Shown here: piece after piece, positions 11,052 to 38,279 of the stretch | How positions within the stretch are numbered: position 1 is the stretch's first letter | Layout: each line of letters starts with the position of its first letter | Origin: Pseudomonadota bacterium | GTDB taxonomy: Bacteria > Campylobacterota > Campylobacteria > Campylobacterales > Sulfurimonadaceae | Direction of reading: 5' to 3' | NCBI GenBank assembly: GCA_043797085.1 | Contig: JAZDQA010000005.1 | Location: 32,001-96,000 of the forward strand | Length of the DNA stretch: 64,000 nt | Position numbers and translations under genes: made by a program | The notes under the pieces: generated by a model | The model's input: the letters and a program-made list of their open reading frames with translations, nothing else | What the model was told of the DNA's origin: nothing | The model's database searches: none

Positions 11052-11074
11052 TCCTTATTAGGACTTTTTAATCT
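11052..11074 (-). promoter_or_regulatory. Shared 23-bp nitrate-unit leader motif, copy 1 (cobA-nirA-narB)
   Basis: + strand TCCTTATTAGGACTTTTTAATCT; aligns without gaps to copies at 16612 and 38257. Confidence 0.65.
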
Positions 11075-11145
11075 TCAAAATAATAGTGTAAAATGAGGTT
11101 TAGAAATACAATAAATTGATTATTTTTTAAGCACAAAGGAATGTT

Positions 11146-11721
11146 ATGGCACTTTTCCCCATGTTCGTTGATTTGAAAGATCAAGATTGTCTCGTAATCG
11201 GTGCAGGTGAAGTGGCACTTCGTAAAATTGAGCAACTGGTGAAGTTCGCACCAAACCTCACGGTCATAGCACCAGCTATACATGAAGAAATACACACCTT
11301 GGCACAAGCGTATTCAATCATCATTATCCAGCGAGAGTACGGTTTAGAAGATTGTGAAAATCGATTTTTGGTTATTGGTGCATTGGATGATCTGGGTGAG
11401 CAGGAAAAAATTTATGCTGCTTGTATGTCATTGAAAATTCCCGTCAACTGTGTTGATTCTCCGGCATTGTGCAGTTTTATTTTTCCTGCCTTGATTGTTG
11501 AGGGAGATTTGTGCGTGGGGATTAATACCTCTGGGAAGGCACCTGCTGTGAGTTCGGCGTTGCGTCAGTATCTTACGACTTTGATTCCGCAGGGGATCGG
11601 GGCTCTTATTGATTGGGTGCATGGTATTCGTCAAAGTGAACCCGTAGGAAAGGAACGCCAAGAGAAGATTATCGGAATATGTCGGGAGTTTTTTAAGTTG
11701 TCACCTGATGTTACACACTAA
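11146..11721 (+). CDS. Precorrin-2 dehydrogenase / sirohydrochlorin ferrochelatase (CysG N-terminal, SirC/Met8-like)
   Basis: FPMFVDL, VIGAGEVALRK, PVNCVDSPALCSFIFPA, INTSGKAPAVS; divergent from cobA. Confidence 0.92.
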   Translation: MALFPMFVDLKDQDCLVIGAGEVALRKIEQLVKFAPNLTVIAPAIHEEIHTLAQAYSIIIIQREYGLEDCENRFLVIGALDDLGEQEKIYAACMSLKIPVNCVDSPALCSFIFPALIVEGDLCVGINTSGKAPAVSSALRQYLTTLIPQGIGALIDWVHGIRQSEPVGKERQEKIIGICREFFKLSPDVTH

Positions 11722-11795
11722 AACGAACTGGTCCGTTTTAGTGGCAGGGACACATGTCCCTTGCATCCCCCTAAAGCTACCAGTATAAATACTGG
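11705..11795. repeat. Multi-hairpin intergenic element
   Basis: Three stems: aaacg..cgttt, gcagggaca-ca-tgtcccttgc, ccagtat..atactgg. Begins with CTGATGTTACACA, identical to 16737-16749. Confidence 0.45.
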
Positions 11796-11853
11796 AGAGT
11801 AATAAAGTTTTAGAATTGCTGGGTATGCTTGGCTAAAAAAAAGGAGCTCTTGA

Positions 11854-12297
11854 ATGTTGAACTGGAAAGAAGTATTGAGATTGGGAAAAGAAGGGAATTT
11901 AACTCCCGATAAGCGTGTTGAAAAAACACCGCAGGAATGGCGTGAAATACTCAGTGAAGAGGAATTTCGTGTAACGCGTCAAGCAGGGACAGAGAGAGCT
12001 TTTAGCTCGTCAATGTGTACTCTTTTCGAACCGGGAGTTTATGCGTGTGTTTGTTGCGGTACGCTGCTTTTTGATGCGACGGAAAAGTTTGATTCGGGTA
12101 CGGGCTGGCCGTCGTTTACTCAGCCGATTCAAGCTAATGCAATCGCCTACAACGCAGACCACTCTCATGGAATGACGCGCGTTGAGACAGTGTGCAACAC
12201 ATGCGATGCCCATCTGGGACATGTATTTCCCGATGGTCCACCTCCAAGCGGATTACGTTATTGTATGAATGCGGTGGCGTTGAAAAAAGTGCATTAG
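11854..12297 (+). CDS. msrB: Peptide-methionine (R)-S-oxide reductase
   Basis: GTERAF, CVCC, KFDSGTGWPSF, CNTC, HLGHVFPDGP, RYCMN. Confidence 0.97.
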   Translation: MLNWKEVLRLGKEGNLTPDKRVEKTPQEWREILSEEEFRVTRQAGTERAFSSSMCTLFEPGVYACVCCGTLLFDATEKFDSGTGWPSFTQPIQANAIAYNADHSHGMTRVETVCNTCDAHLGHVFPDGPPPSGLRYCMNAVALKKVH

Positions 12298-13544
12298 AAT
12301 TTATAGCCCACTTGAAGCCATACTTTTGTGACATCTTTGCTGTAGGTTACAACATCGCCGCCGTCATAATAAGCGGCTTTGATTAAACCGTTTAGCCCTT
12401 TTACACCAGGGATGGCATTGGCGTATTGGATATCCCATTCGCTTCCCAGATCACTTTTTCCGCTCATGGCTACATCGGTTTCAAAATCATGATAGGTAAT
12501 CGTCGCATTGCCCAATCCTGCAGCACCGTATCCGAGGCTTACACTGGTATCACACAGTCCTCCAGTTGGAGTGGCAAGAAACTTATCCGCTGTCCCGTTA
12601 AATTTGTGTAAGGTTGCCAGTGGTGTTTGAAATTTAGTTTTTCCGTCACTTCCCGTGGTTCCGCTTAAGAACTCATACCCCGTACCCAAACTAACACCCA
12701 TCATGCTTGCTGTTGCTTCGAGATCGTAGTAGGATGCATCGTTTTGTCCTTGAATGTTCGTCGTAGTGGTATCAAACGTCGAATCACCTTGTTTGGCATA
12801 CTCTGCACGGTAACCGATTTTAGCCCCTGCTGAGAGAACATCACCGCTGAGGACCACTCCATAGGTATCGGCTGAAAATTGCCCTTTTTCCAAAGAGAGC
12901 ATGTAATCATAGGCCGTGACTTTCAGCATCTCATTAATTTTATACGCTGCATTCAGAAGAACCGAGTCGCTGTCTTGTGTTGGTTCATCAAATACCGTTG
13001 CATAGCTATACACGTATGCTCCATAGAGACTTAATCCTGCAATGGAGGTATTCGTAAGCGACAGGGCATCCAAACTTTGCGGCATTTGTCTCCAATCGAC
13101 GGAGCCGATAAAGCGCTGATTATCAAGATTGCTGATTTGACGACCTGCTTTAAGGGTCGTTGTCCCCATTTTATACTGAACGTACCCTTGTGTAAAGCGG
13201 GTTTGTTCTGGATCGGCAACAACATCGTAATTGCTAAACTTCGTCGGTGAGAGGTCATTGTATTTGGTACCGCCGAGGGTTTGTACAGTGGTTCCATCCA
13301 CTTTCATACTCAATCCATCAACTCCTAACAGAGTGGTTTCAAGACCCAGCGTTGCTCGGAGCGTATAGGCATTGGCTTGTTGTACCGCATTGTTTTTATC
13401 ATCAACGTTTTCATAACGGGCACGTATTTCTCCGTTGTATTTGGTATTACTAAAGAGGGTAAAGCTGTCATCTGCACTTAGTGTACTTGTAAATGTACTT
13501 ACAAGAGAGAGAACAGCCACAGCGGGTAAAGTAATTTTTTTCAT
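12294..13544 (-). CDS. Alginate-export-family outer-membrane porin, probably nitrate/anion entry
   Basis: Signal peptide, EIRARYE, GRQISNLDNQRFIGSVDWRQ, FQTPLATLHKFNG.ADKF, terminal YKF; downstream of the nitrate ABC genes. Confidence 0.8.
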   Translation of the reverse strand: MKKITLPAVAVLSLVSTFTSTLSADDSFTLFSNTKYNGEIRARYENVDDKNNAVQQANAYTLRATLGLETTLLGVDGLSMKVDGTTVQTLGGTKYNDLSPTKFSNYDVVADPEQTRFTQGYVQYKMGTTTLKAGRQISNLDNQRFIGSVDWRQMPQSLDALSLTNTSIAGLSLYGAYVYSYATVFDEPTQDSDSVLLNAAYKINEMLKVTAYDYMLSLEKGQFSADTYGVVLSGDVLSAGAKIGYRAEYAKQGDSTFDTTTTNIQGQNDASYYDLEATASMMGVSLGTGYEFLSGTTGSDGKTKFQTPLATLHKFNGTADKFLATPTGGLCDTSVSLGYGAAGLGNATITYHDFETDVAMSGKSDLGSEWDIQYANAIPGVKGLNGLIKAAYYDGGDVVTYSKDVTKVWLQVGYKF

Positions 13545-13568
13545 AGATAGTTCCTTTATATTAATTTA

Positions 13569-13652
13569 ACGCTATCGGAGCAAAAGCCCCGATTAGCTAC
13601 GCTAACGCTAAGTTTACCCACAGGGGGCACAATGTACTTCGGCAGTAAGCCC
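13569..13652 (+). repeat. Dispersed ~82-bp structured repeat, copy 1
   Basis: acgctatcggagcaaaagccccgattagctacgctaacgctaagtttacccacagggggcacaatgtacttcggcagtaagccc; aligns to 53283 (reverse), 54617 and partly 42514. Confidence 0.8.
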
Positions 13653-13667
13653 ACCAAAATTTTATGA

Positions 13668-14465
13668 TTAGTCTTCATGTTTTGCAAATTTAGAGTAAAG
13701 AAACTCGACAATAGCTCCACGACATCGTAGATACTCTTCGTTGTGTTGTAGTTCTAAACGATTTCGCGGACGGGGAAGGTTCACTTCCAATATCTCGCCA
13801 ATGGTAGCCTCCGGTCCATTGGTCATCATAATGACGCGGTCGCTGAGTAAGACCGCTTCATCGACATCATGGGTGATGATGATGACGGTATTACCGGTTT
13901 GCATCTGAATACGCATCAAATGATCCTGCAAGTTGGCGCGGGTCAGTGAGTCGAGTGCTCCAAACGGCTCATCCATCAACAGCACTTTTGGCTCGATGGA
14001 GAGGGCTCGGGCGATTCCGACACGCTGCTTCATCCCACCGCTGATTTCAGCCGGATATTTGTCTTTGGCGTGATCGAGATTGACGAGATCGATATAGCGC
14101 ATCACATGGTCACGTACTTCTTTGGGGTGAAGATCATCTCTTACTTTTTTGACCGCCATCTCGATGTTTTGATAGACGGTCAACCACGGCAACAGGGAAT
14201 GGTTTTGAAACACCACCGCACGCTCAGGCCCGGGGGCATTGATTTCTCGGTCTTCGAGCAATATGACACCATTGGTGATCGTATCCAGACCTGCGATGAG
14301 GTTGAGAATCGTTGATTTACCGCATCCGGAGTGACCGATGATGGAGACAATCTCATTTTCACGGATTTCAAGTTTCACATCCCGCAATGCGACGTACTCT
14401 TTACCTTTTCCCAAAGGAAATATTTTATCGACATGATCGATGTTTAAAAAGGGTTTTGCACTCAT
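13668..14465 (-). CDS. Nitrate ABC transporter ATP-binding subunit (NrtD/NasD-like)
   Basis: GHSGCGKST, VFQNHSLLPW, ISGGMKQRV, LMDEPFGALD, MMTNGPEATIG. Confidence 0.93.
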   Translation of the reverse strand: MSAKPFLNIDHVDKIFPLGKGKEYVALRDVKLEIRENEIVSIIGHSGCGKSTILNLIAGLDTITNGVILLEDREINAPGPERAVVFQNHSLLPWLTVYQNIEMAVKKVRDDLHPKEVRDHVMRYIDLVNLDHAKDKYPAEISGGMKQRVGIARALSIEPKVLLMDEPFGALDSLTRANLQDHLMRIQMQTGNTVIIITHDVDEAVLLSDRVIMMTNGPEATIGEILEVNLPRPRNRLELQHNEEYLRCRGAIVEFLYSKFAKHED

Positions 14466-15244
14466 ACGCGACCTCGCTTGCGATAATCAAAATGATCAGC
14501 GATAAACCCCATGATGGTGTCGAGGATATACCCGACTATACCGATGAGGATGATACCGATGATAATATGGGAATAGTTGAGATTGTTATACTCATCCCAA
14601 ATCCAAAAGCCAATACCCAAACCGCCCGTAAGCATCTCAGCAGCTACAATGACCAGCCATGCGATTCCCAGTGATAAGCGCATCCCTGTAAAGATAAACG
14701 GTACCGCAACAGGGAGAATGATCTGAAACACTCTCTCAAATGCCGTGAGCTGAAGCACGCGAGCAACGTTGATAAAATCGTCACTCACACTTCGAACTCC
14801 TAAAGCCGTGTTGATGATAATCGGCCAGATAGAGGTGATAAAGATGACAAAAATCGCCGTCATATCGACGTCTTTGAACACAAACAACGCCAACGGCAAC
14901 CACGCAAGCGGTGATACGGGTTTCAGGATTTGAATGTACGGATTAAAAGCGGTTTGCGCCATTTTAGACATTCCGATCAAAAGCCCTACGGGAATACCTA
15001 CTGCGATTGCCAATGCAAATCCGCCGAATACCCGTTTGAGGGAACTAAACAACTGCAATGCAATCCCCTGATCTCCCGCTCCATTGTCATACAGCGGATC
15101 GGAGAGGACGATGAGTAATTCGTTCCATGTCTCTATCGGAGTTGGAAACCCGGGGATTTTAATCGCAACGGTTGACCATACAGCAATAAGGACACCAAAG
15201 AGCAGTGTCGGAAGTGCTACGGTGTTGATGGTTTTTAAGAGCAT
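14462..15244 (-). CDS. nrtB: Nitrate ABC transporter permease
   Basis: QILKPVSPLAWLP, IWPIIINTALGV, LGIAWLVIVAAEMLTGG.GIGFWIWDEYN. Confidence 0.93.
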   Translation of the reverse strand: MLLKTINTVALPTLLFGVLIAVWSTVAIKIPGFPTPIETWNELLIVLSDPLYDNGAGDQGIALQLFSSLKRVFGGFALAIAVGIPVGLLIGMSKMAQTAFNPYIQILKPVSPLAWLPLALFVFKDVDMTAIFVIFITSIWPIIINTALGVRSVSDDFINVARVLQLTAFERVFQIILPVAVPFIFTGMRLSLGIAWLVIVAAEMLTGGLGIGFWIWDEYNNLNYSHIIIGIILIGIVGYILDTIMGFIADHFDYRKRGRV

Positions 15245-15310
15245 AAATGCCTCCTTTTATTAATGTTAAACACTAAAATAAATACATTCGTTTATTCACT
15301 TGCGTACTTT

Positions 15311-16603
15311 TTATTTTACTTTCCATTTATTCACTTTTGCGAGTGCTTCTTTGGTTACTTTTGGATGTTTAATCGGTGCGTTATAGATGTAATCAACCGC
15401 TTTGTTAGGATCAAATACCGAACCGTCGATAAACTTATTACCTGCTGCTTTTCCTTCGATTTTCCATCCTGTTGCAGGTAGTGCATAGTTGACTTCTTTT
15501 GCAGCTGTAGCAAACAAATCAGGACGATAAACACTCTCTACCGTTTTTTTCATATCAATGGCGTGATCGAGCTGTCCCCAGCGAACCATTTGGGTAACTT
15601 GCCACATTCCATGGGTGTAGTACGGATAGAGGGCTTGTTTTTTACCAAACACGTTAAACTGAGGCATAGGAGTTGATACTCCGTTCGTAAACATAAATGT
15701 TCCCGTCATTGAGTTGTCAATAACATCTTTGGGAGCATTGACGTACGATTTAGACGATAAAATCGCCGAAGCCTCTTTGCGGTTTTCCCATGAGGCATCC
15801 AGCCACATACCCGCTTCGATTACTGCTTTTATCATGGCTTTGGTCGTTTCAGGATTTTTATCGGCAAATGCTTTTTGAACCCCTAATACTTTTTCGGGTC
15901 CGTTTTCCCAAAGCTGATACCCTGTAATCACTGTTTTTCCGACATTGCCCATAACGGCACGTTGATTCCATGGTTCACCGACACAAAATCCGTCGATGTT
16001 TCCGGCGGTCATGTTTGCAACCATTTGCGGTGGAGGAACGACTTTGAGTGCTACATCAACATCGGGATCCACTCCTCCAGCTGCCATCCAAAAGCGCAAG
16101 TGATAGTTATGAGTACCTGTTGGAAATGTCATCCCAAATTCAGGAACGCCCATCGTTTTAGAAGTAATCACTTTTTTCAGTGCTACGGCTGAACCTTTTT
16201 TTGTAGCAACTGGGTCGGCTGCCATCATCGCATCGTACATTTTATTGGATACGGTAATTGCATCACCATTTTGTCCCAATGCCATGAGTGCAAGCATGCT
16301 TTTTTGGCTGCTTCCAACACCCAGAGTCGAAGCGATCGGCATTGCCGCGAGCATGTGTGATGCGTCGAGTTCACCAACGGTCATTTTGTCACGGACATTT
16401 GCCCATGATGCTTCTTTGCTTAGTTCTACATTGAGACCGTGTTTTGCAAAGAACCCTTTTTCTTTGGCAATAACGAGAGCCGCACAATCTGTCAGTGGTA
16501 TAAATCCAATCTTGAGATCTTTTTTCTCAACGGCTGCCATGGCTACTGATGCTGCTAGAGAGAGCAGCAAAACACTTTTTCCGAGTAAATTCAAACTTTT
16601 CAT
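15311..16603 (-). CDS. nrtA: Nitrate ABC transporter substrate-binding protein (NrtA/CmpA family)
   Basis: Signal peptide, IGFIPLTDCA, TFPTGTH, PPPQMVANM, FCVGEPWN, QMVRWG. Confidence 0.93.
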   Translation of the reverse strand: MKSLNLLGKSVLLLSLAASVAMAAVEKKDLKIGFIPLTDCAALVIAKEKGFFAKHGLNVELSKEASWANVRDKMTVGELDASHMLAAMPIASTLGVGSSQKSMLALMALGQNGDAITVSNKMYDAMMAADPVATKKGSAVALKKVITSKTMGVPEFGMTFPTGTHNYHLRFWMAAGGVDPDVDVALKVVPPPQMVANMTAGNIDGFCVGEPWNQRAVMGNVGKTVITGYQLWENGPEKVLGVQKAFADKNPETTKAMIKAVIEAGMWLDASWENRKEASAILSSKSYVNAPKDVIDNSMTGTFMFTNGVSTPMPQFNVFGKKQALYPYYTHGMWQVTQMVRWGQLDHAIDMKKTVESVYRPDLFATAAKEVNYALPATGWKIEGKAAGNKFIDGSVFDPNKAVDYIYNAPIKHPKVTKEALAKVNKWKVK

Positions 16604-16611
16604 AATGAAAC

Positions 16612-16634
16612 TCCTATTTAAGATTTAAAAATCT
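16612..16634 (-). promoter_or_regulatory. Shared 23-bp nitrate-unit leader motif, copy 2 (nrtABD-porin)
   Basis: + strand TCCTATTTAAGATTTAAAAATCT, containing a perfect AGAT-N6-ATCT; TACAAT -10 candidate 6 nt upstream on the minus strand. Confidence 0.65.
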
Positions 16635-16727
16635 GAAATAATTGTAATACAAATAATAAATAGTTTCTACAACTAAATGATTAAAAAATATACAATTAGT
16701 TGATTTATAATTAAATAACGAATTTTA

Positions 16728-16982: not shown

Positions 16983-17417
16983 GTGTATATGTTTAAAAAT
17001 ACTGTAATGCTATTTTTATTTTCCTGCACTCTTGTCGCTAATGTTTTAGAGTACGAACCTTATTTTCAAAAAGCGGGGAGTTATTACAATATTCCGCCGC
17101 TGCTTTTAAAAAACATCGCCACTATCGAAAGTGCGGGTAATCCAAACGCGATTCGGATCAATGATAACGGGACAAAAGACTATGGGTTGATGCAGATTAA
17201 TTCAATCCATTTTAAAAGGCTGTCTGCATGGGGGATCAATGAACGCAATATTCTCAACCCTCAAGTCAATATTTTCGCGGGCAGTTGGCTTTTATCTGAG
17301 CATATTAAAGAACGGGGATTTAATCTCCAAGCGATTGGGAATTACCACTCAAAAACACAAATTTACAAAGAACGATGGCTTCGCCGCCTCATCCTCTCTC
17401 TAAAAAGATCAGCCTAA
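16983..17417 (+). CDS. Lytic transglycosylase (SLT domain, IagB/EtgA-like), secretion-system associated
   Basis: IATIES, DYGLMQINS, NIFAGSWLL, AIGNYHS; converges on gspF. Confidence 0.92.
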   Translation: MYMFKNTVMLFLFSCTLVANVLEYEPYFQKAGSYYNIPPLLLKNIATIESAGNPNAIRINDNGTKDYGLMQINSIHFKRLSAWGINERNILNPQVNIFAGSWLLSEHIKERGFNLQAIGNYHSKTQIYKERWLRRLILSLKRSA

Positions 17418-18626
17418 ATTTAACGAGAAAATAGGCAGCAGCATCGCGGTAACCATCACCCCGATAATACCTCCGATAATCAGCATAAGTGACGGTTCCA
17501 AAATCGAGAGGAAGAGAGTAATTTTATCTTTGTTCGTGTCGATGTAAAAGGCAGAAAGGTGCTCAAGCATCGAGGCGAGTTCACTCGTCTCTTCACCAAT
17601 TGCGACCGCTTCGATAAACGAATCATCGATTTTATATCCTGTCTCTTGTTTTAGAGCTTTTGAGAGAGAAGAACCCTCGACTACTTTTACCGAAGCTTTT
17701 TCAAAAAGTTCTTTTATGACTTCCGATGAGAGGGTGATGCAGGAGAGTTTGATGGTATTAACGACGGGTATCCCTGAGCGAATTAATAGGGAAGAGATAG
17801 TACAAAAACGTGCTAAATCACTGGTTTCGACCATTTTCCCGACAATCGGAAGCTTCAAAATAATCGCGTGAATACTTTTCTTAAATTCAGAATTGGTTGC
17901 CATTTGATACGAAAAGAAGCCTACCAGACTCAATACCACAATGGCTATTACAAACCAATACTGAGCAAAAAAATGGGCCATTGCTACGACAATTTGTGTT
18001 AAAAGCGGTAGAGCTTGACCGGTGGACTCGAAAATGGCGGTGATTTTTGGAACAACTACGGTGAGCATAAAAGAGATCATCAAAATCGACACCACTATGA
18101 TAAAAGAGGGGTATACCAATGCTTGTCCCAGTTGTTTTTTGATTTTTTCCTGAAGAATCAAATAGACGGAAAGCTCGTTTAAAACCTCGGCAAGAATACC
18201 TCGGTCTTCGGATATTTTGAGCGTTCCGGTATAAAAAACAGGCAAGGTATAGTGTTCTTGGGATTCAAGGGATTGGGCGAAACTTTTTCCTTCATTGATG
18301 AGGGTTATGATGGTTTCAAAAAAACGTTCCAATCGGACGGTCTTATGATTTTGGTGTTTGAGCAATGTGAGTGCGCGGATCAACGGGATACCGGCATTGA
18401 GATAGACAGCGAGATCACGACTTAAGGTGGCTAAGAGAGAAGTAGGGAGATTTTTTTGTTTAAAGAGTGCCAAAACACCAAAAAAAGATTCTTCACGCGT
18501 TGAGATGTCCGAATAGAGAATCCCTTGCACTTTTAGTTTTATTTTTGCTTCGTCTATCGTAGACGCTTCAATCGTTGATTTTAACGGATTTCCTGCAGCG
18601 TCCATCCCTTTGTAATGAAATTCCAT
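17409..18626 (-). CDS. gspF: Type II secretion inner-membrane platform protein F
   Basis: FHYKGMD, LNAGIPL, ALVYP, VVPKI, IGEETSEL, LEP, AMLLPIF. Confidence 0.93.
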   Translation of the reverse strand: MEFHYKGMDAAGNPLKSTIEASTIDEAKIKLKVQGILYSDISTREESFFGVLALFKQKNLPTSLLATLSRDLAVYLNAGIPLIRALTLLKHQNHKTVRLERFFETIITLINEGKSFAQSLESQEHYTLPVFYTGTLKISEDRGILAEVLNELSVYLILQEKIKKQLGQALVYPSFIIVVSILMISFMLTVVVPKITAIFESTGQALPLLTQIVVAMAHFFAQYWFVIAIVVLSLVGFFSYQMATNSEFKKSIHAIILKLPIVGKMVETSDLARFCTISSLLIRSGIPVVNTIKLSCITLSSEVIKELFEKASVKVVEGSSLSKALKQETGYKIDDSFIEAVAIGEETSELASMLEHLSAFYIDTNKDKITLFLSILEPSLMLIIGGIIGVMVTAMLLPIFSLNLG

Positions 18627-20140
18627 TATGCCTCTTTGACTCCCACACGGATGATCTCATCGAGACCAGTCGTGTGATCGAGCAATAATTCGATGAGTTG
18701 ATTGGATAGAAACTGCATTCCTCTGGATTTCATTATTTCTCGAAGTTCAAAATCATTGTCGCTAATTTTTAACAATGGACGCAAAGTATCATCAATCATG
18801 AAAAATTCACCGATAGCAACGCGTCCAGAATAGCCTGTATAATGGCAGTGAACGCACCCTTTTGGCTGTGCTATGATCTGTCCATGTACAATTCCAAGCT
18901 CGTCCGCATCTTTATCAGACAAGGTGACATTTTCTTTGCATTCAGGACACAGGCATCGAACGAGCCGTTGAGCTAAGACGCCTAAAAGAGTGGAAGTAAT
19001 CAAAAATTTATCGATTCCCATATCGGCTAATCGTGTTAGTGCCGCAGTGGCATTGTTGGTATGGAGCGTTGAGAGAACGAGGTGACCTGTCATTGCCGCT
19101 TGGATGGCAATGTGCGCCGTCTCAGTATCACGAATCTCACCAATCATAATAATATCAGGGTCTTGACGTAAAATGGAGCGCAGTCCTCCTGCAAAGGTTA
19201 GTCCTGCTTTGGTATTGACGGCGATTTGACTCACATGAGGTGCATCGTATTCCACTGGGTCTTCGATCGAGATGATGTTCTTTTCAGGGGAAGCCAACTG
19301 TTGTAAAAAAGAGTGCAGGGTGGTTGATTTACCGCTTCCCGTTGGTCCTGTGACTAAGATGATACCATGAGAGAATTTGAGAAGTTCTTCAAGATTTGAA
19401 GTGGTTGTTTCATTAAATCCCAATTCACGCAAAGAGGGAATCGAGGTTGCCTGCATTAAAAGCCGCAAAACTACCCGTTCACCGTGATAAGTGGGGAGGA
19501 CTGAAACACGAACATCGAGACTTTTACCGGCTACTTTGACTTGTGTTCGTCCGTCTTGAGGAAGGCGTTTTTCGGAAATATCCAAAGCAGAGATGACTTT
19601 GATACGACTGATGATGAGATCGATGATATTTTTGTCCAAATCAATATGTTTGATGAGTGCGCCATCGACTCGAAATCGTACTTCCCCTTTTTTTTCGTGC
19701 GTTTCGATGTGGATATCACTGGCTTTTCGTTTGATGGCTTGATAGAAGATGGTGTTGACAAATTTGATAATCGGGGCGGATTCTTCACTAGTCAGCAAAT
19801 CCGCCGAATTTTTGATGAAATCGACCAACGATAACTCTTCATCGATGAACTCATTGCTGCCGGAAACAGTTTTAGAAATATCAAGATCCGTTTTATGTTC
19901 CAAAAATTTCAAATAAAGATTTTCATATCCTGCATGGGAAAGATGCGCGATTGGATAGTTGAGAGAGAGTTTATTGTAAAGCTGAAGCGCTGCTAGATGC
20001 TGTGTTTCAGGGATAATAGCATAGAGCTCTCCATCATACGTACAAAATAAAAGTGAGTGACGAATGCACAAAGCAACATCAATATTTTCAGGATAAGTGA
20101 ACAAAATTTCTGTTTCATCCAAAAAAGGGAATGTTATCAT
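18626..20140 (-). CDS. gspE: Type II secretion ATPase E
   Basis: ASDIHIE, RFRVDG, EKRLPQDGR, GPTGSGKST, EDPVEY, LRQDPDIIMIGEIRD, STLHTN, CPEC...CVHC. Confidence 0.95.
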   Translation of the reverse strand: MITFPFLDETEILFTYPENIDVALCIRHSLLFCTYDGELYAIIPETQHLAALQLYNKLSLNYPIAHLSHAGYENLYLKFLEHKTDLDISKTVSGSNEFIDEELSLVDFIKNSADLLTSEESAPIIKFVNTIFYQAIKRKASDIHIETHEKKGEVRFRVDGALIKHIDLDKNIIDLIISRIKVISALDISEKRLPQDGRTQVKVAGKSLDVRVSVLPTYHGERVVLRLLMQATSIPSLRELGFNETTTSNLEELLKFSHGIILVTGPTGSGKSTTLHSFLQQLASPEKNIISIEDPVEYDAPHVSQIAVNTKAGLTFAGGLRSILRQDPDIIMIGEIRDTETAHIAIQAAMTGHLVLSTLHTNNATAALTRLADMGIDKFLITSTLLGVLAQRLVRCLCPECKENVTLSDKDADELGIVHGQIIAQPKGCVHCHYTGYSGRVAIGEFFMIDDTLRPLLKISDNDFELREIMKSRGMQFLSNQLIELLLDHTTGLDEIIRVGVKEA

Positions 20141-23045: not shown

Positions 23046-23434
23046 GATTCAATCTCCACGAGAATTATCCCTTTTGATGCACTGTTGCGTCGGAGGGTTA
23101 ACTTTTTTATCACCAGCATAGAGTTAAGAATTTTGTTTGAAATACGATTGAATTCCAGCGATGAAAGGTTGTCGTATTCAAAATAGACATTACCACCTCG
23201 TTTTTCTTGTTTGATTAGGTTAGGATGATTTTTTAAATACTCAAACTCGTTGTGAGATTCTTGAGCACCCCAGCGTGTTTTTAAGATATCGATTGTTTTG
23301 GCTTGCTGTGTGAGCATTGCGTGTTCTTGTTGTAACTCTTTTGCGGCTGAATGTTGCCATAATGCACCCAGTGCAGTAACGACAACAAGCGCCAAGGTTA
23401 TCATCAAGGAGAGGGTAAGAATTTTTGGTTTCAT
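23042..23434 (-). CDS. T2SS assembly-platform protein (GspM-like by position)
   Basis: N-terminal TM, coiled coil, small C-terminal domain. Confidence 0.5.
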   Translation of the reverse strand: MKPKILTLSLMITLALVVVTALGALWQHSAAKELQQEHAMLTQQAKTIDILKTRWGAQESHNEFEYLKNHPNLIKQEKRGGNVYFEYDNLSSLEFNRISNKILNSMLVIKKLTLRRNSASKGIILVEIES

Positions 23435-24558: not shown

Positions 24559-24559
24559 A

Positions 24560-25659: not shown

Positions 25660-25694
25660 TTTGCCGTTACGAAACACCTAAAAAGGGATGGATT

Positions 25695-27836: not shown

Positions 27837-27841
27837 TAATG

Positions 27842-27864
27842 TTCTCCCTTTTTAGGGAGAATTT
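27842..27864 (+). terminator. Hairpin downstream of phoX
   Basis: ttctccct-tttt-agggagaa perfect stem immediately after the stop. Confidence 0.65.
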
Positions 27865-28227
27865 CAACCCTAAAAAGTTCATAAACCCCAACTATTCATT
27901 CAAAAGCAAATTTATTGTCTTAAGTTTGAGAGCTTCACTTCAACCCTAAAAATCTTCATCTATATGCGCTTATGAAGTAGAACCTATGAACGAATATTTT
28001 ACTTCAAAGTTTAGATGTATTTCAAAAATAACTGTGTTGCACTTGATTGTTGAATGAGCGTTTCAAAATTGATTTTATTTTTATTAATATTAAAAAATAA
28101 ATTGTGTGAAATAGTTAGAAAAATAGTTCTACAACTAAACAGTATAGATTTTATAATAGTGTTCATTAAGTTGTCATTTTTTCATGTTAGAATACAATAG
28201 TGATTACAAAAAAGTAGGAGTTATAGA

Positions 28228-28659
28228 ATGAAATTTGATTCTAAAAGAAAAGCGTTTACCTTAATAGAAATTATGGTTGTTATCATTATTTTAGGACTTT
28301 TGGCGGCGTTTGTTATTCCTAATATTACAGGAAAAAGCGGTGAAGCCAAACAAAAATTGGTCTGTATTCAGATGAAGAGTTTAAATGAGAGTCTGAAAAT
28401 GTTCAAAGTTGACAATGGTTCTTATCCTGCAAGCGAAGAGGGATTGAATGCTCTTATCACAAATCCTAATCCTAACGAATACACCTCGTATGCTCCAAGT
28501 GCTTACATTGAGGGGAAAAACCTTCCTAAAGATCCGTGGAATAAACCGTATTTATATCTCAATCTCGATGGTTCTGTCGAACTCATCTCTCTAGGTGCTG
28601 ATGGCAAAGAGGGTGGAGAAGGTGAAGATAAGGATCAAAAACTTTCCGAGTGCCGCTAA
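28228..28659 (+). CDS. gspG: Type II secretion major pseudopilin G
   Basis: KA-FTLIEIMVVIIILGLLA, FKVDNGSYP, GLNAL, PKDPWNKPY, SLGADGKEGGEGEDKD. Confidence 0.95.
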   Translation: MKFDSKRKAFTLIEIMVVIIILGLLAAFVIPNITGKSGEAKQKLVCIQMKSLNESLKMFKVDNGSYPASEEGLNALITNPNPNEYTSYAPSAYIEGKNLPKDPWNKPYLYLNLDGSVELISLGADGKEGGEGEDKDQKLSECR

Positions 28660-29211
28660 GTGAAAACGTTTCGTGGGGGGATGACTCTTTTTGAATTACT
28701 GATCGTTATGATAATTGTCGGGATTGTCTATTCGATTGGTATATTTACGTTAAAAAAAGAGAAAGTCACCGCCACGACGATGAGTATATCCACACTAAAA
28801 ACTACTCTTTTATCTCTTTCTCAATCAAGCGAAATCCGTATGTTTTGCGATACCTCTTGTGCAGAGTGCCGTGTATTTTCAAATGAGGGGAAAGTCATTA
28901 CCGTGTTAAATCTGCATTCGAATGAGACAATACAGCGTTATGGTTTTGATCGTTTTGGCGAACTTCAACGGTTGGGGAATACTGTTGCACGAACAGAAGA
29001 CGCATTAGAGCAAGGGTGTTTTGAGATGTCACTTCGTCCTGATGGATCGGTAACGCCTGTAATATTAAAGAGCAATAATACATTTTATGCGTATACCCCT
29101 ATGGGCGAAAATAAACCCTACATTGCCAAAAGTGAAGAGGCTTTACGAAATATGCTCTTTAATGAAGCTGACTATCCTCTGAGAGGAGATGACGTGTATG
29201 GCGCTTTCTAA
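28660..29211 (+). CDS. Minor pseudopilin (GspH-like)
   Basis: G-MTLFELLIVMIIVGI N-methylation motif. Confidence 0.75.
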   Translation: MKTFRGGMTLFELLIVMIIVGIVYSIGIFTLKKEKVTATTMSISTLKTTLLSLSQSSEIRMFCDTSCAECRVFSNEGKVITVLNLHSNETIQRYGFDRFGELQRLGNTVARTEDALEQGCFEMSLRPDGSVTPVILKSNNTFYAYTPMGENKPYIAKSEEALRNMLFNEADYPLRGDDVYGAF

Positions 29212-29632
29212 AGGCTTTTCTCTTATCGAAACACTGGTTGCCATAACCATCGCTTCCATCGCTACGATGGCGTTGATGAAGGTAATTTCCAACTCTTCGA
29301 GCATTTCTATAAATGCGATTGGACGTTTTGATTCATCGATTATGATGGGTTTGGTTGCAGGAGAAGTGAATGAGACGTTCGATGGCAGAGTTATGAGTGC
29401 GGATGAGATTGTAGAGACTCGTTATACCATCGATCACCCTGTGATTCTTGAATCGCTGAAATCAACCTCGTATGAGATTCGCTTGTTACCTAAAGAGATT
29501 CTCAACCCTCTTATGACAACCAACGTAAATGGGGTAGATCCGACAACGGCTTCGATTGCTATCCAAAAAGTGATTTTAAAAAATCCCCAAGAGCAGAAAT
29601 CTTTTTTCCGTATTACATCGGGTTCTCTATGA
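29198..29632 (+). CDS. Minor pseudopilin (GspI-like)
   Basis: KG-FSLIETLVAITI; start set at ATG 29198 by AGGAG spacing. Confidence 0.75.
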   Translation: MALSKGFSLIETLVAITIASIATMALMKVISNSSSISINAIGRFDSSIMMGLVAGEVNETFDGRVMSADEIVETRYTIDHPVILESLKSTSYEIRLLPKEILNPLMTTNVNGVDPTTASIAIQKVILKNPQEQKSFFRITSGSL

Positions 29633-30132
29633 GACGCAATGCTTTTACCCTGATCGAATTGGTGGTTTCAATAGCTTTGTTTGGGCTTATCACGGTTTTT
29701 TTATTCGGGGCGATTGATGAGTTACGAAAGCAACAAATGTTTTTTCAACAAAAAGAAGTTGTGATTGAACGAAAAAATCAAATTGTGTCATTGTTGCGAA
29801 CTGACTTAGACCGGGCACAGTCAGTCACTGTTTCGACAAGCATGAGCAAGGATTTTGACACGGTCTCGATTACCGGTTCAAACCGCTCGTTATATGGAAT
29901 CGATCGTCCATACGTTGTATGGCTGGTACTAAAAGCGGATAATACGTTGATACGGCTAGAATCCTCTTCTCTCATCACCATACCTATCGCACCTGAAACA
30001 CTGTATTCGATCCACAGTGACCGTATCGCAAAGCAGTGTGAATTGTTTCGCGTGTATGATTCCCCCAAACATCGACTGCTCTATCTAAAATTTGAAAATC
30101 AATCGCCCTTGATCGTTGAAACAACCAAATAA
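29629..30132 (+). CDS. Minor pseudopilin (GspJ-like)
   Basis: NA-FTLIELVVSIALF, LRTDLDRA. Confidence 0.75.
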   Translation: MRRNAFTLIELVVSIALFGLITVFLFGAIDELRKQQMFFQQKEVVIERKNQIVSLLRTDLDRAQSVTVSTSMSKDFDTVSITGSNRSLYGIDRPYVVWLVLKADNTLIRLESSSLITIPIAPETLYSIHSDRIAKQCELFRVYDSPKHRLLYLKFENQSPLIVETTK

Positions 30133-30143: not shown

Positions 30144-30569
30144 TTAAAGACGTTTTATTTTGCTGGTAGAAAAATCAGCGACCAATTCTTCAAGCCGCAT
30201 AGCAGAGTACATGGCATCGATTTCATTACGCCAAATTTCCCATTGGGCATGAAGGGCACACGGCTTTTCAGCTTCGCATTCACCGATCCCCAACAAACAC
30301 GTATCAAATAAGACCGTACCATCCACAGCATGGATGATCGAGATTAGGGTTATTTCTGACGCGTCACGGGAGAGTTTTACCCCTCCTGAAGCGCCTCGAT
30401 GTGAGGTTAAAATGTCTGCATGAACGAGTTTTTGGAGTGATTTTGCTAAAAAATGATAGGGAAGATCGAGCGCTTCACTGATAATTTGAATACGATAATA
30501 CTCATCTCGCGGTTTGGTGGCGAGCCAAACAGCCGCTCGAATGGTATCTTGGCAGGCAGAGGAGAGCAT
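30144..30569 (-). CDS. Rrf2-family transcriptional regulator with three Fe-S-type cysteines
   Basis: LPYHFLAKSLQKL, SHRGASGGVKL, ITLISIIHAVDG, CLLGIGECEAEKPCALH. Confidence 0.92.
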   Translation of the reverse strand: MLSSACQDTIRAAVWLATKPRDEYYRIQIISEALDLPYHFLAKSLQKLVHADILTSHRGASGGVKLSRDASEITLISIIHAVDGTVLFDTCLLGIGECEAEKPCALHAQWEIWRNEIDAMYSAMRLEELVADFSTSKIKRL

Positions 30570-31426: not shown

Positions 31427-31546
31427 GGACTCTCCTTAGGTAAAATTGATGAGAAAATTATAGTCTAATATAGTACCTAGAAGCTGATTATAAAATCATC
31501 AATTTTACAGAAGTCTCTTATAAGCTCCGGTTGTTAAAATACGCCA

Positions 31547-34435: not shown

Positions 34436-35221
34436 TTAATAAGAATAGATTAATACGGCATTAAAAATATTGAAGTTCGATTCGGAACGAGGTTCTATCC
34501 AAGGGATACCCGTGGTATCAACAATAATATTTGATTTTTCTATATCCCATGTTTGATAGGTATAGGCAAATTTTAATGCCCATTCCGATGTAATTGTGTG
34601 TATCCAAGGAATAGAAACAGTGTAACCATCAGTACGCCCTAAATCAAATGTTCCGAACATATTTGACTTCATTTTAGGAGAAATTGCTCTGTGGTATTCA
34701 ACTGAAATCCCGATATTATCATCAGGAAAAATATTTCCACTAAGTCCAGTAGAGAGTGATCCATACGGCCAAACATATTGTTCATTATGACCACCGTTTA
34801 AAACTCTTTCCCAAAATCGGTACCCTATTCCAACACGCATAGACCAGAGTGCTTGGTCTAATACTTTATCTTCGCTATAGCCAATCGTTGCTTCAGAGAT
34901 ATGGTTATGTGTTGCTGTAACGAGGTCTCCATAGTTACCTCCTTGATAAGAGCCAATATAGGTTGTATCACCATAAAAATGAGAAAATCCAGCGTCTATG
35001 TATCCGCAGTCTCCATCCACACCATCATTGATATGCGTTTTGTAACCTATGGAAAAGCCAGGTAAGGTGTCTGCTGTTTCTGAATCAAATCTATCTCCAT
35101 TAGCTTTGTATTCCATATAATCCATAGACATGGTATTCGCTCCGACAGTGAGCTGACTCTCTTTTGCCAAGGCTGCAAAGGCTATTGATAAAATTAAAAT
35201 TACTAAATAGTGCTTTTTCAT
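34436..35221 (-). CDS. Hypothetical outer-membrane beta-barrel protein
   Basis: Signal peptide, alternating aromatic beta strands (GIGYRFWER, FAYTYQTW), terminal YSY. Confidence 0.7.
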   Translation of the reverse strand: MKKHYLVILILSIAFAALAKESQLTVGANTMSMDYMEYKANGDRFDSETADTLPGFSIGYKTHINDGVDGDCGYIDAGFSHFYGDTTYIGSYQGGNYGDLVTATHNHISEATIGYSEDKVLDQALWSMRVGIGYRFWERVLNGGHNEQYVWPYGSLSTGLSGNIFPDDNIGISVEYHRAISPKMKSNMFGTFDLGRTDGYTVSIPWIHTITSEWALKFAYTYQTWDIEKSNIIVDTTGIPWIEPRSESNFNIFNAVLIYSY

Positions 35222-35331
35222 CGTTAAAACTCCCTTTTTTTGTTAGAGGGTATTTGTAAATTTCTTATTTTATGATACATAATTTATGGTTAATATTTTC
35301 ATGTTTTCATTATAAGGGAATTAAAATAAAG

Positions 35332-36972
35332 TTATTTTGAGATATAAAAGACAAAAGTAATAACTTCAAGAATGAGCATCATAAAAAACCCGACCTTATA
35401 AAATGTAACAGGAGAGCGTTCGATGAGGGGGATTCCTTTACAAAAATAGGGTTTTACTTTTTCAGGCGATTTAAGTTCGTAAAAAAATTCTGAGTAGTGA
35501 GTGTAGCGTTCATTGGAATCGAGTGCAATGGCGTGCATAATGATGGAGTCAAGCCATACTGGAATATTTTTGTTGAGCTTGATAGGGCGTTTGGGCGTTT
35601 TAAATGTAGGTGTTTGGAACGGCTCGATCTCACCGTAGGGCATAACACCTGTTAGTGCCCAGTACAGTGTTACTCCGATGGAAAATATTTCACTGGATTC
35701 GTTGATGATTCCACCTGTAAAACGCTCAGGAGCGAGATAGCTTGGGGTCCCTGCACGGGAGTTGAGCGAGTAAATTTCGACAACAGAGCCAAAATCAACC
35801 ATTTTGAAAGTGACTCCTGCCTCACCCACTTTTTTGGTAACGATGATATTTTCGGGTTTGATGTCCCCGTGGACCAGTCCTAAATGAAGGAGATGTGCTT
35901 GGGCTTTGTGCAAAAATTTCCCAAGCTCAATTGCAGCATCGATAGAAATAGGTCGATTTTTGAGATAGTCATGCAGATTCATCCCCTCAACAAGTTCCAT
36001 CATGTAGTAGCGTACCGTTCGTTCCGCCGGAACCCATGCGTGACCGAAGGCTTTGTGGGTTACTTGTTTGGCGTACCATGCTTCTTTGACAAACTTATCG
36101 AGCGCTTGAGGATCATCACCGCTCATTGGAAATTTCATCACAAACAGTTCATTACTTTTAGAGACTTTCCAAATACGGCTGTGCTCCATCATGGGAGAGA
36201 GGAGGGTATATCCGTCGATGATTTGACCCTCAAAGAGAGTTTCAGGAATAGGAAGGGGAGCATTTTTGAGTGCATGAAGCGGATCGAGTGCTTCGATATG
36301 AAAAATTTGCAAACTCATATCATCACGATCTTTTGGGAGAGCGTTTTGAGAGACGTGAGTGACGATGCTTTTTGCGCCCAACCCTTTTTGTATTAGTTCT
36401 AAAAAAGAGTCATTGTCGATGAGATTATAAACCCCATCACTGCAAAGGATAAGGGTGTCGCCAACGGCTATGTGCGTAGAGAGAATCGGGACATCAATAT
36501 TTTCGCAAAGCCCGCATGCTTGCGTAAGTACGTGAGACATATACTCATCGTCCATAGTGTGATCGGTACTTAGCTGTTGCAGTTTACCATCGGATGACAA
36601 AAGATAGATGCGTGAATCACCGAGATTAAGGGAGTAGAGCGTTTCACCTTCGATGACGGTAAGGCAAAGGGTAGTGAGAAGCTCGATTTTCTCGTATTGC
36701 GACATTGATTCTTTGAATAAAAGATTGTTGATGTGACGGGTGAAAACTTCCATTGTTTTGGGAATGTCCCACGCTTTTGGACGCGTTTTAAACTGGTCGA
36801 TAAAAAATTTTACGCATTGGCGCGCCGCGCTTCCGCCGCGCTTCGCACTTCCGACACCATCGCATAAGACGCTGACAAACAGGGTATTATCGATGATGGT
36901 AAACGCGCAAGCATCATCCCCGACACAATCAGGTTTAGGAAGGATGACTTGCGAAGATTGGAGTTGTAACAT
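35332..36972 (-). CDS. Bifunctional PP2C phosphatase / Ser-Thr protein kinase with C-terminal TM
   Basis: PP2C motifs CDGVG, NLGDSR, CSDGV, DDMS; kinase motifs VMKFP, HGDIKPEN, DFG, GTPSYLAPE; start abuts the narK stop. Confidence 0.92.
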   Translation of the reverse strand: MLQLQSSQVILPKPDCVGDDACAFTIIDNTLFVSVLCDGVGSAKRGGSAARQCVKFFIDQFKTRPKAWDIPKTMEVFTRHINNLLFKESMSQYEKIELLTTLCLTVIEGETLYSLNLGDSRIYLLSSDGKLQQLSTDHTMDDEYMSHVLTQACGLCENIDVPILSTHIAVGDTLILCSDGVYNLIDNDSFLELIQKGLGAKSIVTHVSQNALPKDRDDMSLQIFHIEALDPLHALKNAPLPIPETLFEGQIIDGYTLLSPMMEHSRIWKVSKSNELFVMKFPMSGDDPQALDKFVKEAWYAKQVTHKAFGHAWVPAERTVRYYMMELVEGMNLHDYLKNRPISIDAAIELGKFLHKAQAHLLHLGLVHGDIKPENIIVTKKVGEAGVTFKMVDFGSVVEIYSLNSRAGTPSYLAPERFTGGIINESSEIFSIGVTLYWALTGVMPYGEIEPFQTPTFKTPKRPIKLNKNIPVWLDSIIMHAIALDSNERYTHYSEFFYELKSPEKVKPYFCKGIPLIERSPVTFYKVGFFMMLILEVITFVFYISK

Positions 36973-38250
36973 TTATATTTTCGCTCCTGAAACTGCGCCC
37001 CACGTTGTTCTCCAACGCGTTTTAACCAGACTGATACCGCTCATAGCGATAAGAACCATCACACCGAAGATCAAAAATCCGGCTGTATACCCCTCGAATG
37101 CTCCTTGCGACCATCCGAATGTTTTGATAAGAGCTGTACCGCCCAAACCGCCTGCTGCACCGATAAGCCCTGTCATAACGCCGATGTCTTTACCAAAACG
37201 CTGCGGAACGAGCTGAAATACTGAACCGTTCGCCATTCCGAGATTTGCCATGATAAGAAACATCACGACAATCGCTGCCCAAAACGGAAGCTTGATAAAG
37301 GCACTGATAAGAGATAGAACGACAATCATACCAAAAAAGATGTAAAGGGATTTTATTCCTCCCATTTTATCCGCAACTGCACCGCCGACCGGACGAAGCA
37401 TTGCTCCTGCAAAAATACAAAGTGCTCCGAAATATCCGGCGATAACTTTGACGTTCTCCTCGTTCATCACATCGATGCCAAAGGCAGACATATCTGCTTG
37501 GTAGGTGTTCATCAAATAGACTTTCATGTAGTTGGCAAATCCGATAAATCCTCCGAAAGAGACGGCATAAAAGAGGTTAAACCACCATGTGTCTTTGTCT
37601 CGCATGAGTTTCATATAATCCGCTAATTTTTTAGGATTTGGTTTATAGACACTTGATGGTGCGTCTTTTGCCATAAGCATATAGGCTACCAATACAATAC
37701 TTGATAGAATCCCGCCGACCAAGAAGACCGATGCCCATCCCCAAAGTTCTGCAATCTTAGGGGCAAATAAAAAGTCAATAACAACCCCGATATTTCCTGC
37801 ACCCGCAATCCCAAGAACCGTTCCCTGAAGACGCGGCGGATACCATTGACCTGCTTGCGGGAGTGCTACGGCAAATGATGCACCTGCAAATCCAAGACCC
37901 AATGCGACAAGAAGAAGCTGATTATACGTAATAGAATCCGCACTGATATAGGCCAAAAAGAGTGTGGCAATCACGATGAGCTGAGAAACAAGAGCGGTTT
38001 TCTTCGCTCCGAATTTATCGACAAATACGCCCAATACGATGCGCAGCAGAGCACCAGCAAGTACCGGAACCGCGAGCAGTGTCGCTTGCTGATCATCACT
38101 CATGGTAAATCCACGAAGTGAGAGGCTTTCCCCAATCTCGGTTGCCAGTGGTCCCAGCATCGTCCACATCATAAAACTAAAATCAAAATACAAGAAAGCT
38201 GCAAACAGCGTTGGCCAGTGCCCCTCTTTTTTTAAATCTCCGAATTTCAT
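36973..38250 (-). CDS. narK: NarK/NasA-family MFS nitrate/nitrite transporter
   Basis: GHWPTLFAAFLYFDFSF, GFAGASFAVALP, GAGNIG, FYAVSFGGFIG, LRPVGG, NGSVFQLVPQRF. Confidence 0.93.
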   Translation of the reverse strand: MKFGDLKKEGHWPTLFAAFLYFDFSFMMWTMLGPLATEIGESLSLRGFTMSDDQQATLLAVPVLAGALLRIVLGVFVDKFGAKKTALVSQLIVIATLFLAYISADSITYNQLLLVALGLGFAGASFAVALPQAGQWYPPRLQGTVLGIAGAGNIGVVIDFLFAPKIAELWGWASVFLVGGILSSIVLVAYMLMAKDAPSSVYKPNPKKLADYMKLMRDKDTWWFNLFYAVSFGGFIGFANYMKVYLMNTYQADMSAFGIDVMNEENVKVIAGYFGALCIFAGAMLRPVGGAVADKMGGIKSLYIFFGMIVVLSLISAFIKLPFWAAIVVMFLIMANLGMANGSVFQLVPQRFGKDIGVMTGLIGAAGGLGGTALIKTFGWSQGAFEGYTAGFLIFGVMVLIAMSGISLVKTRWRTTWGAVSGAKI

Positions 38251-38256
38251 GTATCC

Positions 38257-38279
38257 TCCTAATTAGGATTTTTTTATCT
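38257..38279 (-). promoter_or_regulatory. Shared 23-bp nitrate-unit leader motif, copy 3 (narK-kinase)
   Basis: + strand TCCTAATTAGGATTTTTTTATCT; TACACT -10 candidate 4 nt upstream on the minus strand. Confidence 0.65.

Follow-up and report, generated by a model that had tools for sequence, protein, structure and literature searches.

The 64,000-nucleotide stretch of a Campylobacterota genome analyzed here (the window) carries three separate nitrate-assimilation operons, namely cobA-nirA-nasA, a nitrate ATP-binding cassette (ABC) transporter operon headed by nrtA, and an operon consisting of narK, a PP2C/Ser-Thr kinase gene and a gene of unknown function. A preliminary description of the window had proposed a common nitrate-assimilation signal for these three operons, and such a conserved signal was confirmed. 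It consists of a palindrome at the presumed transcription start (site A), and a second palindrome (site B), which the preliminary description had overlooked, lies further upstream in all three promoters. The best explanation is probably a two-input switch in which an Rrf2 protein encoded in the window acts on site A and an NtrC-derived protein encoded elsewhere in the genome acts on site B.

The signal was originally described as a 23-mer ending in the Shine-Dalgarno (SD) sequence, and the 23-mers are present on the minus strand at positions 11074-11052 (cobA), 16634-16612 (nrtA) and 38279-38257 (narK). Scanning of the whole genome (2,404,792 bases) with the consensus of these 23-mers returned three exact matches only, none with one mismatch, one with two and seven with three. 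Because a genome scan with this consensus is circular, a 20-bp palindromic matrix was learned instead from the upstream DNA (58 regions) of narK, nrtA and cobA orthologues, all taken from other genomes. With this matrix the window sites occupied the first three ranks in 2.4 Mb (Table 1), and the next match scored 14.6 bits. Scores of at least 17 bits were observed in 4 of 2,449 upstream windows, with the cobA site counted from both sides, and 60 column-permuted matrices reached this score in 0.1 windows on average and in 2 at most.

In terms of its form, what is conserved is not the 23-mer but a 20-bp palindrome (core RGAY-W6-RTCY): of 58 orthologous promoters, 53 have the 14-bp palindromic core and 14 the full earlier consensus. 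As had been described, hexamers resembling a -10 element precede the core, by 10 (cobA), 6 (nrtA) and 4 (narK) nucleotides, and in 53 of 53 orthologous promoters such a hexamer stands 4-7 nucleotides ahead of the core (6 nucleotides in 33). It is this hexamer that places site A over the predicted +1 position. Several nrtA promoters have an extra site A, located at -112 or 25 nucleotides upstream, where it spans the -10 region, and second copies were scored at -58 and -59 in loci L016 and L031 (14.6 and 14.5 bits, respectively) and at -112 in L018 (20.8 bits). The record that holds L016 is titled Candidatus Izemoplasmatales, and its nitrate cluster is 88% identical to the Sulfuricurvum type; the contig is probably misplaced. 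In one locus (L032) the porin gene heads its own operon and gains a site A, which was not found at the 9 other porin genes scored.

The candidate for binding to site A is the product of rrf2, which is encoded in the window (Table 1). This protein belongs to the Rrf2 family, with scores of 88.9 bits for PF02082 (cutoff 30) and 83.7 bits for TIGR00738 (cutoff 73.3), and its structure model (predicted local distance difference test score 85.5) has the winged-helix Rrf2 fold, with RsrR, CymR, IscR and NsrR matching at template modelling scores of 0.67-0.77 and 20-28% identity. In the alignment C91, C98 and C104 are invariant and H107 is nearly invariant, and these three cysteines and the histidine suggest that the protein carries an iron-sulfur (Fe-S) cluster. 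In the window rrf2 is paired with the gene for a 285-residue membrane protein. In relatives rrf2 belongs to the nitrate cluster, and in 14 of the 18 loci that hold both rrf2 and the kinase gene it lies directly behind the latter; usually, therefore, the narK promoter also serves rrf2, whose product would repress its own gene.

The distribution of rrf2 follows that of the nitrate genes and of site A. Orthologues were found in 24 of 28 genomes of the genus, and none with more than 38% identity was found in 22 other genera of the family. In a larger set of 66 genomes of the genus, many of them incomplete, rrf2 and nirA were both present in 43, rrf2 alone in 1, nirA alone in 4 and neither in 18. 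In the same set a strict site A pattern was found in 40 of 44 genomes with rrf2 and in 4 of 22 without it (40/4/4/18), tables that overstate the association because related genomes are not independent. Among 33 narK loci searched, all 28 from genomes with rrf2 scored at least 14.2 bits, although these belong to the training set, while the narK site had decayed in 3 of 5 genomes without rrf2 (7.5, 4.5 and -3.2 bits). The cobA site had likewise decayed in G171, which has no rrf2. Outside the Sulfuricurvum-like group, no site A was found in 44 narK promoters, the best score being 8.7 bits (L045 had too little upstream DNA to be included). Eight of the narK leaders outside Sulfuricurvum (L038, L040, L044, L051, L053, L067, L069 and L072) carry the stretch TAATGAWAAATTAAG before the SD sequence, possibly another nitrate-specific signal. 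The preliminary description had named the Rrf2 protein and the PP2C/kinase as possible regulators; co-inheritance with site A supports the former, and nothing pointing to the PP2C/kinase as the binder turned up, no test having been aimed at the kinase.

The strongest evidence for the Rrf2 protein as the binder is that site A follows it away from the nitrate genes. Among 301 genomes of the phylum, two outside the genus have the protein, G459 (46% identity) and G344 (41%). G459 has two copies of site A before cobA-nirA-narK-nasA, adjoining the Rrf2 gene; the narK gene of this genome (L133:5583-6997, minus strand) is broken into two reading frames. In G344 a single site A stands behind TATAAT and before a REC/HD-GYP gene adjoining rrf2, and here (L134:10049-10068) the Rrf2 gene and the site occur with genes for a REC-DUF3369-HD-GYP phosphodiesterase and a histidine kinase, not with nitrate genes. 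More distant relatives were collected from 35 metagenome loci, all related (33-43% identity) to the single distant protein P0116, which gave 28 distinct upstream regions after removal of 7 duplicates. The strict core lay within 150 nucleotides upstream of rrf2 in 13 of the 28, every time at -29 to -34, whereas cores with N5 or N7 spacers and permuted cores were found in none of the same regions and shuffles gave a mean of 0.67. A softened matrix scored above 11 in 20 of 24 distant loci chosen as non-redundant, the 99.5th percentile in the genome of the window being 10.4. The core was also found within 200 nucleotides upstream in 5 of 8 plasmid loci fetched, and within this distance there was none at the Gemmatirosa, Azospirillum and Tritonibacter Rrf2 loci.

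The neighbors of these relatives are frequently genes for the metabolism of nitric oxide (NO) and nitrous oxide (N2O). Of 69 neighbor proteins, 41 were scanned, and they included nosZ in 4 loci, qNor in 3, HemN in 1 and ric in 1, the others being unrelated or unnamed. Among the plasmid members, that of Hymenobacter is next to hmpA and that of Tunicatimonas is next to ric, a truncated haemoglobin gene and nosZ. The cluster Rrf2, as we call the window protein, falls in one clade with Bacteroidota and other proteins with support of 95/87, on long branches. The hmpA/Rrf2 spacer of Deinococcus radiodurans (L280:1640-1810) has the core GGAC-N6-ATCC, and the Rrf2 protein of this species is outside the clade.

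Site B is a 17-bp palindrome, TGATTAAAWTTTAATCA. The distance between the centers of site A and site B was 56.5-59.5 bp in all 55 promoters measured. A site B matrix trained on the narK upstream DNA of other genomes (79 regions) scored at least 10 bits in 78 of these same training regions. In 69 of the 78 narK promoters a -10-like hexamer follows 31 or 32 nucleotides further on, which puts the center of site B near -52. In the genome of the window nine matches reached 14 bits, located at amtB (two), narK, cobA, the spacer between nifQ and a gene for a 631-residue protein, glnA, nrtA, the unrelated yigZ/mutY spacer and nifA, and 15 windows were observed compared to 0.75 for permuted matrices. 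The preliminary description had looked to glnA, amtB and glnB for recurrence of its motif. This does not apply to site A, which was not found before the glnA, amtB or PII genes; the palindrome at these genes is the different one, site B.

Further genes are likely targets of site B: a circularly permuted ATP-grasp operon (L083:7173-8537, plus strand; 10.3 bits), a small divergent pair that includes a FeMo-co-binding-like protein (L083:2147-3051; 13.9 bits) and a gene for a CZB-like protein adjoining nifH (L089:3218-3775, minus strand; 13.2 bits). The 631-residue protein divergent from nifQ (L081:10712-12607, minus strand) is of no known family and has a strong site B (18.3 bits).

Fis proteins bind a G-N13-C pattern. 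Site B fits this pattern, and proteins with a Fis-type helix-turn-helix (HTH) were therefore examined. The preliminary description had stated that NtrC is not encoded here; within the window this is correct, but contig C14 of the same genome encodes an NtrC-derived protein, hereafter the C14 protein, whose database name is only 'Fis family transcriptional regulator'. It has an AAA+ core and an HTH like those of NtrX and NtrC, with NtrX as the best structural match, and TIGR01818 matched 10 of 10 members of its group, all far below the cutoff. Members are about 230-300 residues long and start at the AAA+ domain, without the NtrC receiver domain. Among 34 aligned rows, a Walker A-like motif is present in 32 and NRxTL in 34, while a sigma54-contacting GAFTGA-like loop is present in none, this region being deleted relative to the NifA protein of the same genome (which itself has GAFTDA).

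A search with a single query found the C14 protein in 76 of 301 genomes of the phylum, including 48 of 61 genomes in one family (f7), 1 of 90 in family f2 and none of 124 in family f3; the latter two, large families of small genomes, probably correspond to the host-associated Helicobacter and Campylobacter groups. The glnA promoters of f7 were compared in 17 genomes with the protein and 13 without, one of the latter being dropped because its glnA is split. Site B was present at glnA in 17 of 17 genomes with the protein (16 at 10.4 bits or more, one at 5.1 bits in the same position) versus 2 of 12 without. Among 30 genomes from other families, all 21 in which the protein was first found had the site (one scoring 8.8 bits), compared to 0 of 7 without the protein; two more genomes with site B proved protein-positive by alignment search, for a total of 23 of 23 from 11 families. 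Taken together, the glnA promoter has site B in 40 of 40 genomes that encode the C14 protein, weakly in two of them, and in 2 of 19 without it. Of 10 loci with the gene for the C14 protein, 4, which come from three families, have it next to amtB-glnK (once also with glnD), and 5 have it before fabD. A complex prediction for a PII trimer with the C14 protein scored 0.00, which counts neither for nor against an interaction.

The sites, their spacing and conservation, their co-inheritance with each of the two proteins and the gene neighborhoods are direct observations. We consider it very likely that the Rrf2 protein binds to site A, and likely that the C14 protein binds to site B. Repression through site A and activation through site B are suggested by the positions of the sites. 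Each nitrate operon would then be served by a promoter of the sigma70 type, on which the two DNA sites keep a fixed spacing. On site A, centered near +6, a cluster-bearing Rrf2 dimer would cover the start and block transcription; NO or nitrite-derived nitrosative species may damage the Fe-S cluster and release the protein, as in NsrR. Under ammonium limitation the C14 protein on site B would aid the sigma70 polymerase at nitrogen-scavenging genes. The resulting AND gate would open when the cell is nitrogen-starved and a nitrogen oxide is present, and trace nitrite from basal reduction or respiration could induce uptake, siroheme synthesis and both reductases together. The shares in public RNA runs were at most 0.14, for contigs only, and yielded neither transcription starts nor expression levels.

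A different nature of the signal would be an RNA element, or the site of an RNA-binding protein of the ANTAR or CsrA type, that hides the SD sequence. The motif does fall where the transcript is presumed to begin, 5 nucleotides from the SD sequence in 36 of 55 sites, and UCYU is able to pair with AGGA in the three window copies. However, the distance from the core to the SD sequence spans 3 to 15 nucleotides, and the described fusion to the ribosome binding site is not supported. The halves of the palindrome vary independently: among 38 distinct sites, the bases can pair in only 37% at columns 3/18 and 68% at columns 4/17, two of the seven mirrored pairs, and an ANTAR-type conserved paired stem was not seen in what is a single, variable stem. 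The second copies in L016, L031 and L018 are upstream of the -10 hexamer and hence outside the presumed transcript, and Rrf2 genes of other phyla also have this palindrome beside them. The variable spacing, the unpaired columns and the upstream copies therefore indicate a DNA operator. The ANTAR profile PF03861 had no match in the genome, although control genomes were equally silent. An RNA element is largely excluded and is the least probable of the alternatives; of the two forms that the preliminary description had left open, the repressor operator over +1 is the most likely, and the sites, their position and their conservation fit it. If the operator is DNA, its binder could still be another protein, with the cluster Rrf2 as a passenger. 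A second Rrf2 protein encoded on contig C4 shares the cysteine pattern and the clade of the cluster protein, and a few genomes keep site A with no cluster Rrf2 found. This paralog nevertheless follows the strict site A pattern less closely (25/8/19/14, compared to 40/4/4/18 for the cluster gene), G107 has the paralog yet a decayed narK site (4.5 bits), and the paralog's own operon is without site A. It is disfavored on these three grounds, and we regard this alternative as quite improbable. The operon in question (L284:4466-10211, minus strand) is of the nor type and encodes a cytochrome c, a COX1-fold protein, a VWA protein, a NorQ-type AAA protein, COX3 and a COX4-like protein.

With the Rrf2 protein on site A, its effector is a separate question. 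NO or nitrite is the likeliest, with a modest lean in its favor, because the relatives mostly adjoin NO/N2O genes. The same operator and protein could instead sense Fe-S supply or oxygen/redox in the manner of IscR or RisR, so that synthesis of the Fe-S- and siroheme-rich reductases is matched to cofactor supply. The three cysteines and His107 occur as in IscR, with the histidine aligned with that of IscR; among the named NCBIfam families IscR scores highest (57.9 bits), with NsrR behind it (34 bits); compared to the RisR operator GAC-N7-GTC given in the available part of PMC9973013, the core GAY-N6-RTC has one base fewer; and one distant member is upstream of HemN. Every named family is nevertheless far under its cutoff, site A is on no isc or suf gene of the genome, and the gene neighborhoods of the relatives point to NO and N2O, so we hold this alternative to be a minority possibility. 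For site B, the binder could be some other protein, such as one encoded on contig C12, which we take to be CemR/HP1021-like, or the C14 protein could be a Fis-like architectural factor. The fit to the Fis pattern, the lack of a receiver or other recognized sensor domain, the position before fabD and apart from nitrogen genes in half of the loci, and the two genomes with site B and no protein are consistent with this. Against it, site B is concentrated on nitrogen genes at a fixed distance to the -10 hexamer, it is lost together with the protein in several separate genera, and the gene stands next to amtB-glnK in three families; we consider such alternatives unlikely.

Several observations nonetheless weigh against the two-input switch. 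Two of the five genomes without rrf2 (L012 and L014, small assemblies) keep a perfect narK site, in L003 a 22.3-bit nrtA site persists although no rrf2 was found on its long contig, and G183, 57% complete and without rrf2, keeps the cobA site. In several rrf2-bearing genomes the first G of the cobA site has been lost (about 14 bits), and 4 of the 24 distant loci have no site A upstream. The C4 nor-type operon, with an Rrf2 of the same clade, has a promoter without site A, a misfit with a simple NO regulon. The Asp ligand of NsrR is out of register in the window protein. As for site B, G508 and G510 have the site at glnA and no protein was found even by alignment search, while the other absences come from single-protein searches, which missed two true members elsewhere.

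The gene assignments of the window were largely upheld. The cobA product scores above the cutoff of the uroporphyrinogen-III methyltransferase family, and nrtA encodes an NMT1_2 binding protein followed by a nitrate ABC permease and ATPase, again above cutoffs. For narK the best family is the NarK-type major facilitator superfamily transporter, but the score is below the family cutoff; its nearest relatives are Sulfuricurvum records with identity up to 98%. A siroheme-synthase N-terminal-domain gene is divergent from cobA. The nitrate genes form one block in most relatives, unlike in the window, where a type II secretion cluster with phoX (16983-30132) lies between nrtA and rrf2. Two short intergenic elements (11706-11798 and 13583-13645) have high depth and loose ends from many contigs and resemble dispersed repeats; a separate palindrome resembling the repetitive extragenic palindromic type has 11-15 genome copies.

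Table 1. Coordinates of the operons, sites and regulator genes; positions without a prefix are those of the window, and a prefix names another contig or locus.
Feature	Position	Strand	Remarks
Target operon 1	6289..11044	-	cobA, ferredoxin-type nitrite reductase, assimilatory nitrate reductase, 104-residue unknown protein
Target operon 2	12294..16603	-	nitrate ABC binding protein, permease, ATPase, alginate-export-family porin
Target operon 3	34436..38250	-	narK-type transporter, PP2C/Ser-Thr kinase fusion, 261-residue unknown protein
Site A of cobA-nirA-nasA	11058..11077	-	core 11074-11061; 17.2 bits, rank 3 in genome
Site A of nitrate ABC transporter operon	16618..16637	-	core 16634-16621; 22.3 bits, rank 1
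Site A of narK-PP2C/kinase	38263..38282	-	core 38279-38266; 19.8 bits, rank 2
-10-like hexamer, cobA	11085..11090	-	TACACT; predicted, conserved in orthologues
-10-like hexamer, nrtA	16641..16646	-	TACAAT; predicted, conserved in orthologues
-10-like hexamer, narK	38284..38289	-	TACACT; predicted, conserved in orthologues
Site B, cobA/siroheme-synthase N-terminal-domain divergent spacer	11117..11133	.	18.8 bits
Site B upstream of nrtA	16678..16694	.	16.2 bits
Site B upstream of narK	38322..38338	.	20.7 bits
Weaker site B, upstream of the 285-residue membrane protein-rrf2 pair	31484..31502	.	13.8 bits; TATAAT 21 nucleotides on
rrf2, proposed site A binder	30144..30569	-	141 residues, C91-X6-C98-X5-C104-X2-H107; PF02082, alignment, co-occurrence
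Second Rrf2, same clade	C4:122465-122878		end of nor-type operon; found in 33 of 66 genomes of the genus
Receiver-less NtrC/Fis-HTH protein, candidate site B binder	C14:11066-11881 = L095:1462-2277	-	271 residues

Vents, sulfidic aquifers and oxygen-poor waters are habitats in which Campylobacterota predominate, and no paper naming a nitrogen regulator of this phylum was found. In a literature search that excluded subscription journals, regulon databases and supplements, neither motif and neither regulator was found described for the phylum. New for site A is the use of an Rrf2 operator for nitrate assimilation; for site B, which marks a nitrogen-starvation gene set common to many free-living Campylobacterota, the candidate activator appears to be undescribed. 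Both parts vary regulatory schemes already known and do not amount to a new type of machine, and the weight of the finding is more on site B and its candidate class-wide regulator than on site A. With site B and the C14 protein there is a specific gene, together with a motif and a regulon, to test in cultured Sulfurimonas or Sulfuricurvum, and, if the assignment is true, a lineage of NtrC that works without phosphorylation or sigma54. Site A links nitrate assimilation to the Rrf2 subfamily found before clade II nitrous-oxide reductases, so that one biochemical study would inform both. A broader reading is tentative and, in our view, somewhat less than an even prospect: free-living Campylobacterota may share a class-wide nitrogen regulon under an NtrC descendant that has shed its receiver and sigma54 loop. 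This protein would act as an activator of sigma70 promoters from about -52 and would sense nitrogen status independently of NtrB, via PII or a metabolite on the shrunken AAA+ domain. Sulfuricurvum would have added to this regulon an NO-sensing Rrf2 repressor whose family guards nosZ of clade II and nor genes, and nitrate assimilation would then be induced by a nitrogen-oxide product and not through a nitrate sensor.

Compared to known Rrf2 regulators, the window protein is below the NsrR, IscR, RirA and CymR family cutoffs. It resembles NsrR of Streptomyces, enterobacteria and Bacillus in its fold, its three C-terminal cysteines, a palindromic operator on the promoter and relatives beside hmp, ric and nor. 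It may well work like NsrR, although as judged from sequence it departs from that family in profile hidden Markov model score, Asp ligand and operator. It scores 34 bits with NF008240 against a cutoff of 182, and its targets are assimilatory uptake and reduction genes. The NsrR operator, gATGyAT-(N5)-ATrCATc in the available part of PMC1274295, differs from RGAY-N6-RTCY. The fourth cluster ligand of NsrR is an N-terminal Asp, D8 (available parts of PMC9218516 and PMC9338935); in an alignment read by eye the hmp-linked L283 protein has T-D-Y-A-L-R where the window protein has C-Q-D-T-I-R, with Gln at the Asp position. The operators of SifR/HypR (PMC9218516) and Thermus NsrR (PMC5748679) are also unlike site A as far as the available parts of these sources describe them, and the former lists three large Rrf2 clusters as uncharacterized. 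IscR of E. coli and RisR of Myxococcus xanthus share the Cys3-His pattern and GAC...GTC half-sites, but the IscR profile TIGR02010 gives 57.9 bits against a cutoff of 207.55, no isc or suf targets are among the top sites, and the N7 spacer of RisR in the available part of its source compares to N6 here, N7 having been found in 0 of 28 regions of the relatives. Closest are the uncharacterized Rrf2 proteins of clade II nosZ clusters in Bacteroidota and others, of the same clade and with the same operator; Rrf2 genes are enriched in clade II nos scaffolds, with a role that is hard to predict, according to the available part of PMC6264515. Compared to these, the Sulfuricurvum protein has moved onto nitrate assimilation, where a nitrogen-status site accompanies its operator, and the operator is no longer directly before the rrf2 gene itself.

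The C14 protein is similar to NtrC and NtrX in its AAA+ domain with a Fis-type HTH fold and in a predicted regulon of glnA, amtB-glnK, nifA and nas genes, and it differs from them in that the receiver domain is absent, the sigma54-contact region is deleted and its sites are near -52 of sigma70-type promoters. In cyanobacteria NtcA acts with NtcB, and in Proteobacteria NtrC acts with NasST or NasR, so that a global nitrogen activator is combined with a pathway-specific nitrate or nitrite input. The arrangement proposed here would follow the same two-input logic, with the specific input provided by an Fe-S repressor on DNA in place of a LysR activator or an ANTAR antiterminator.

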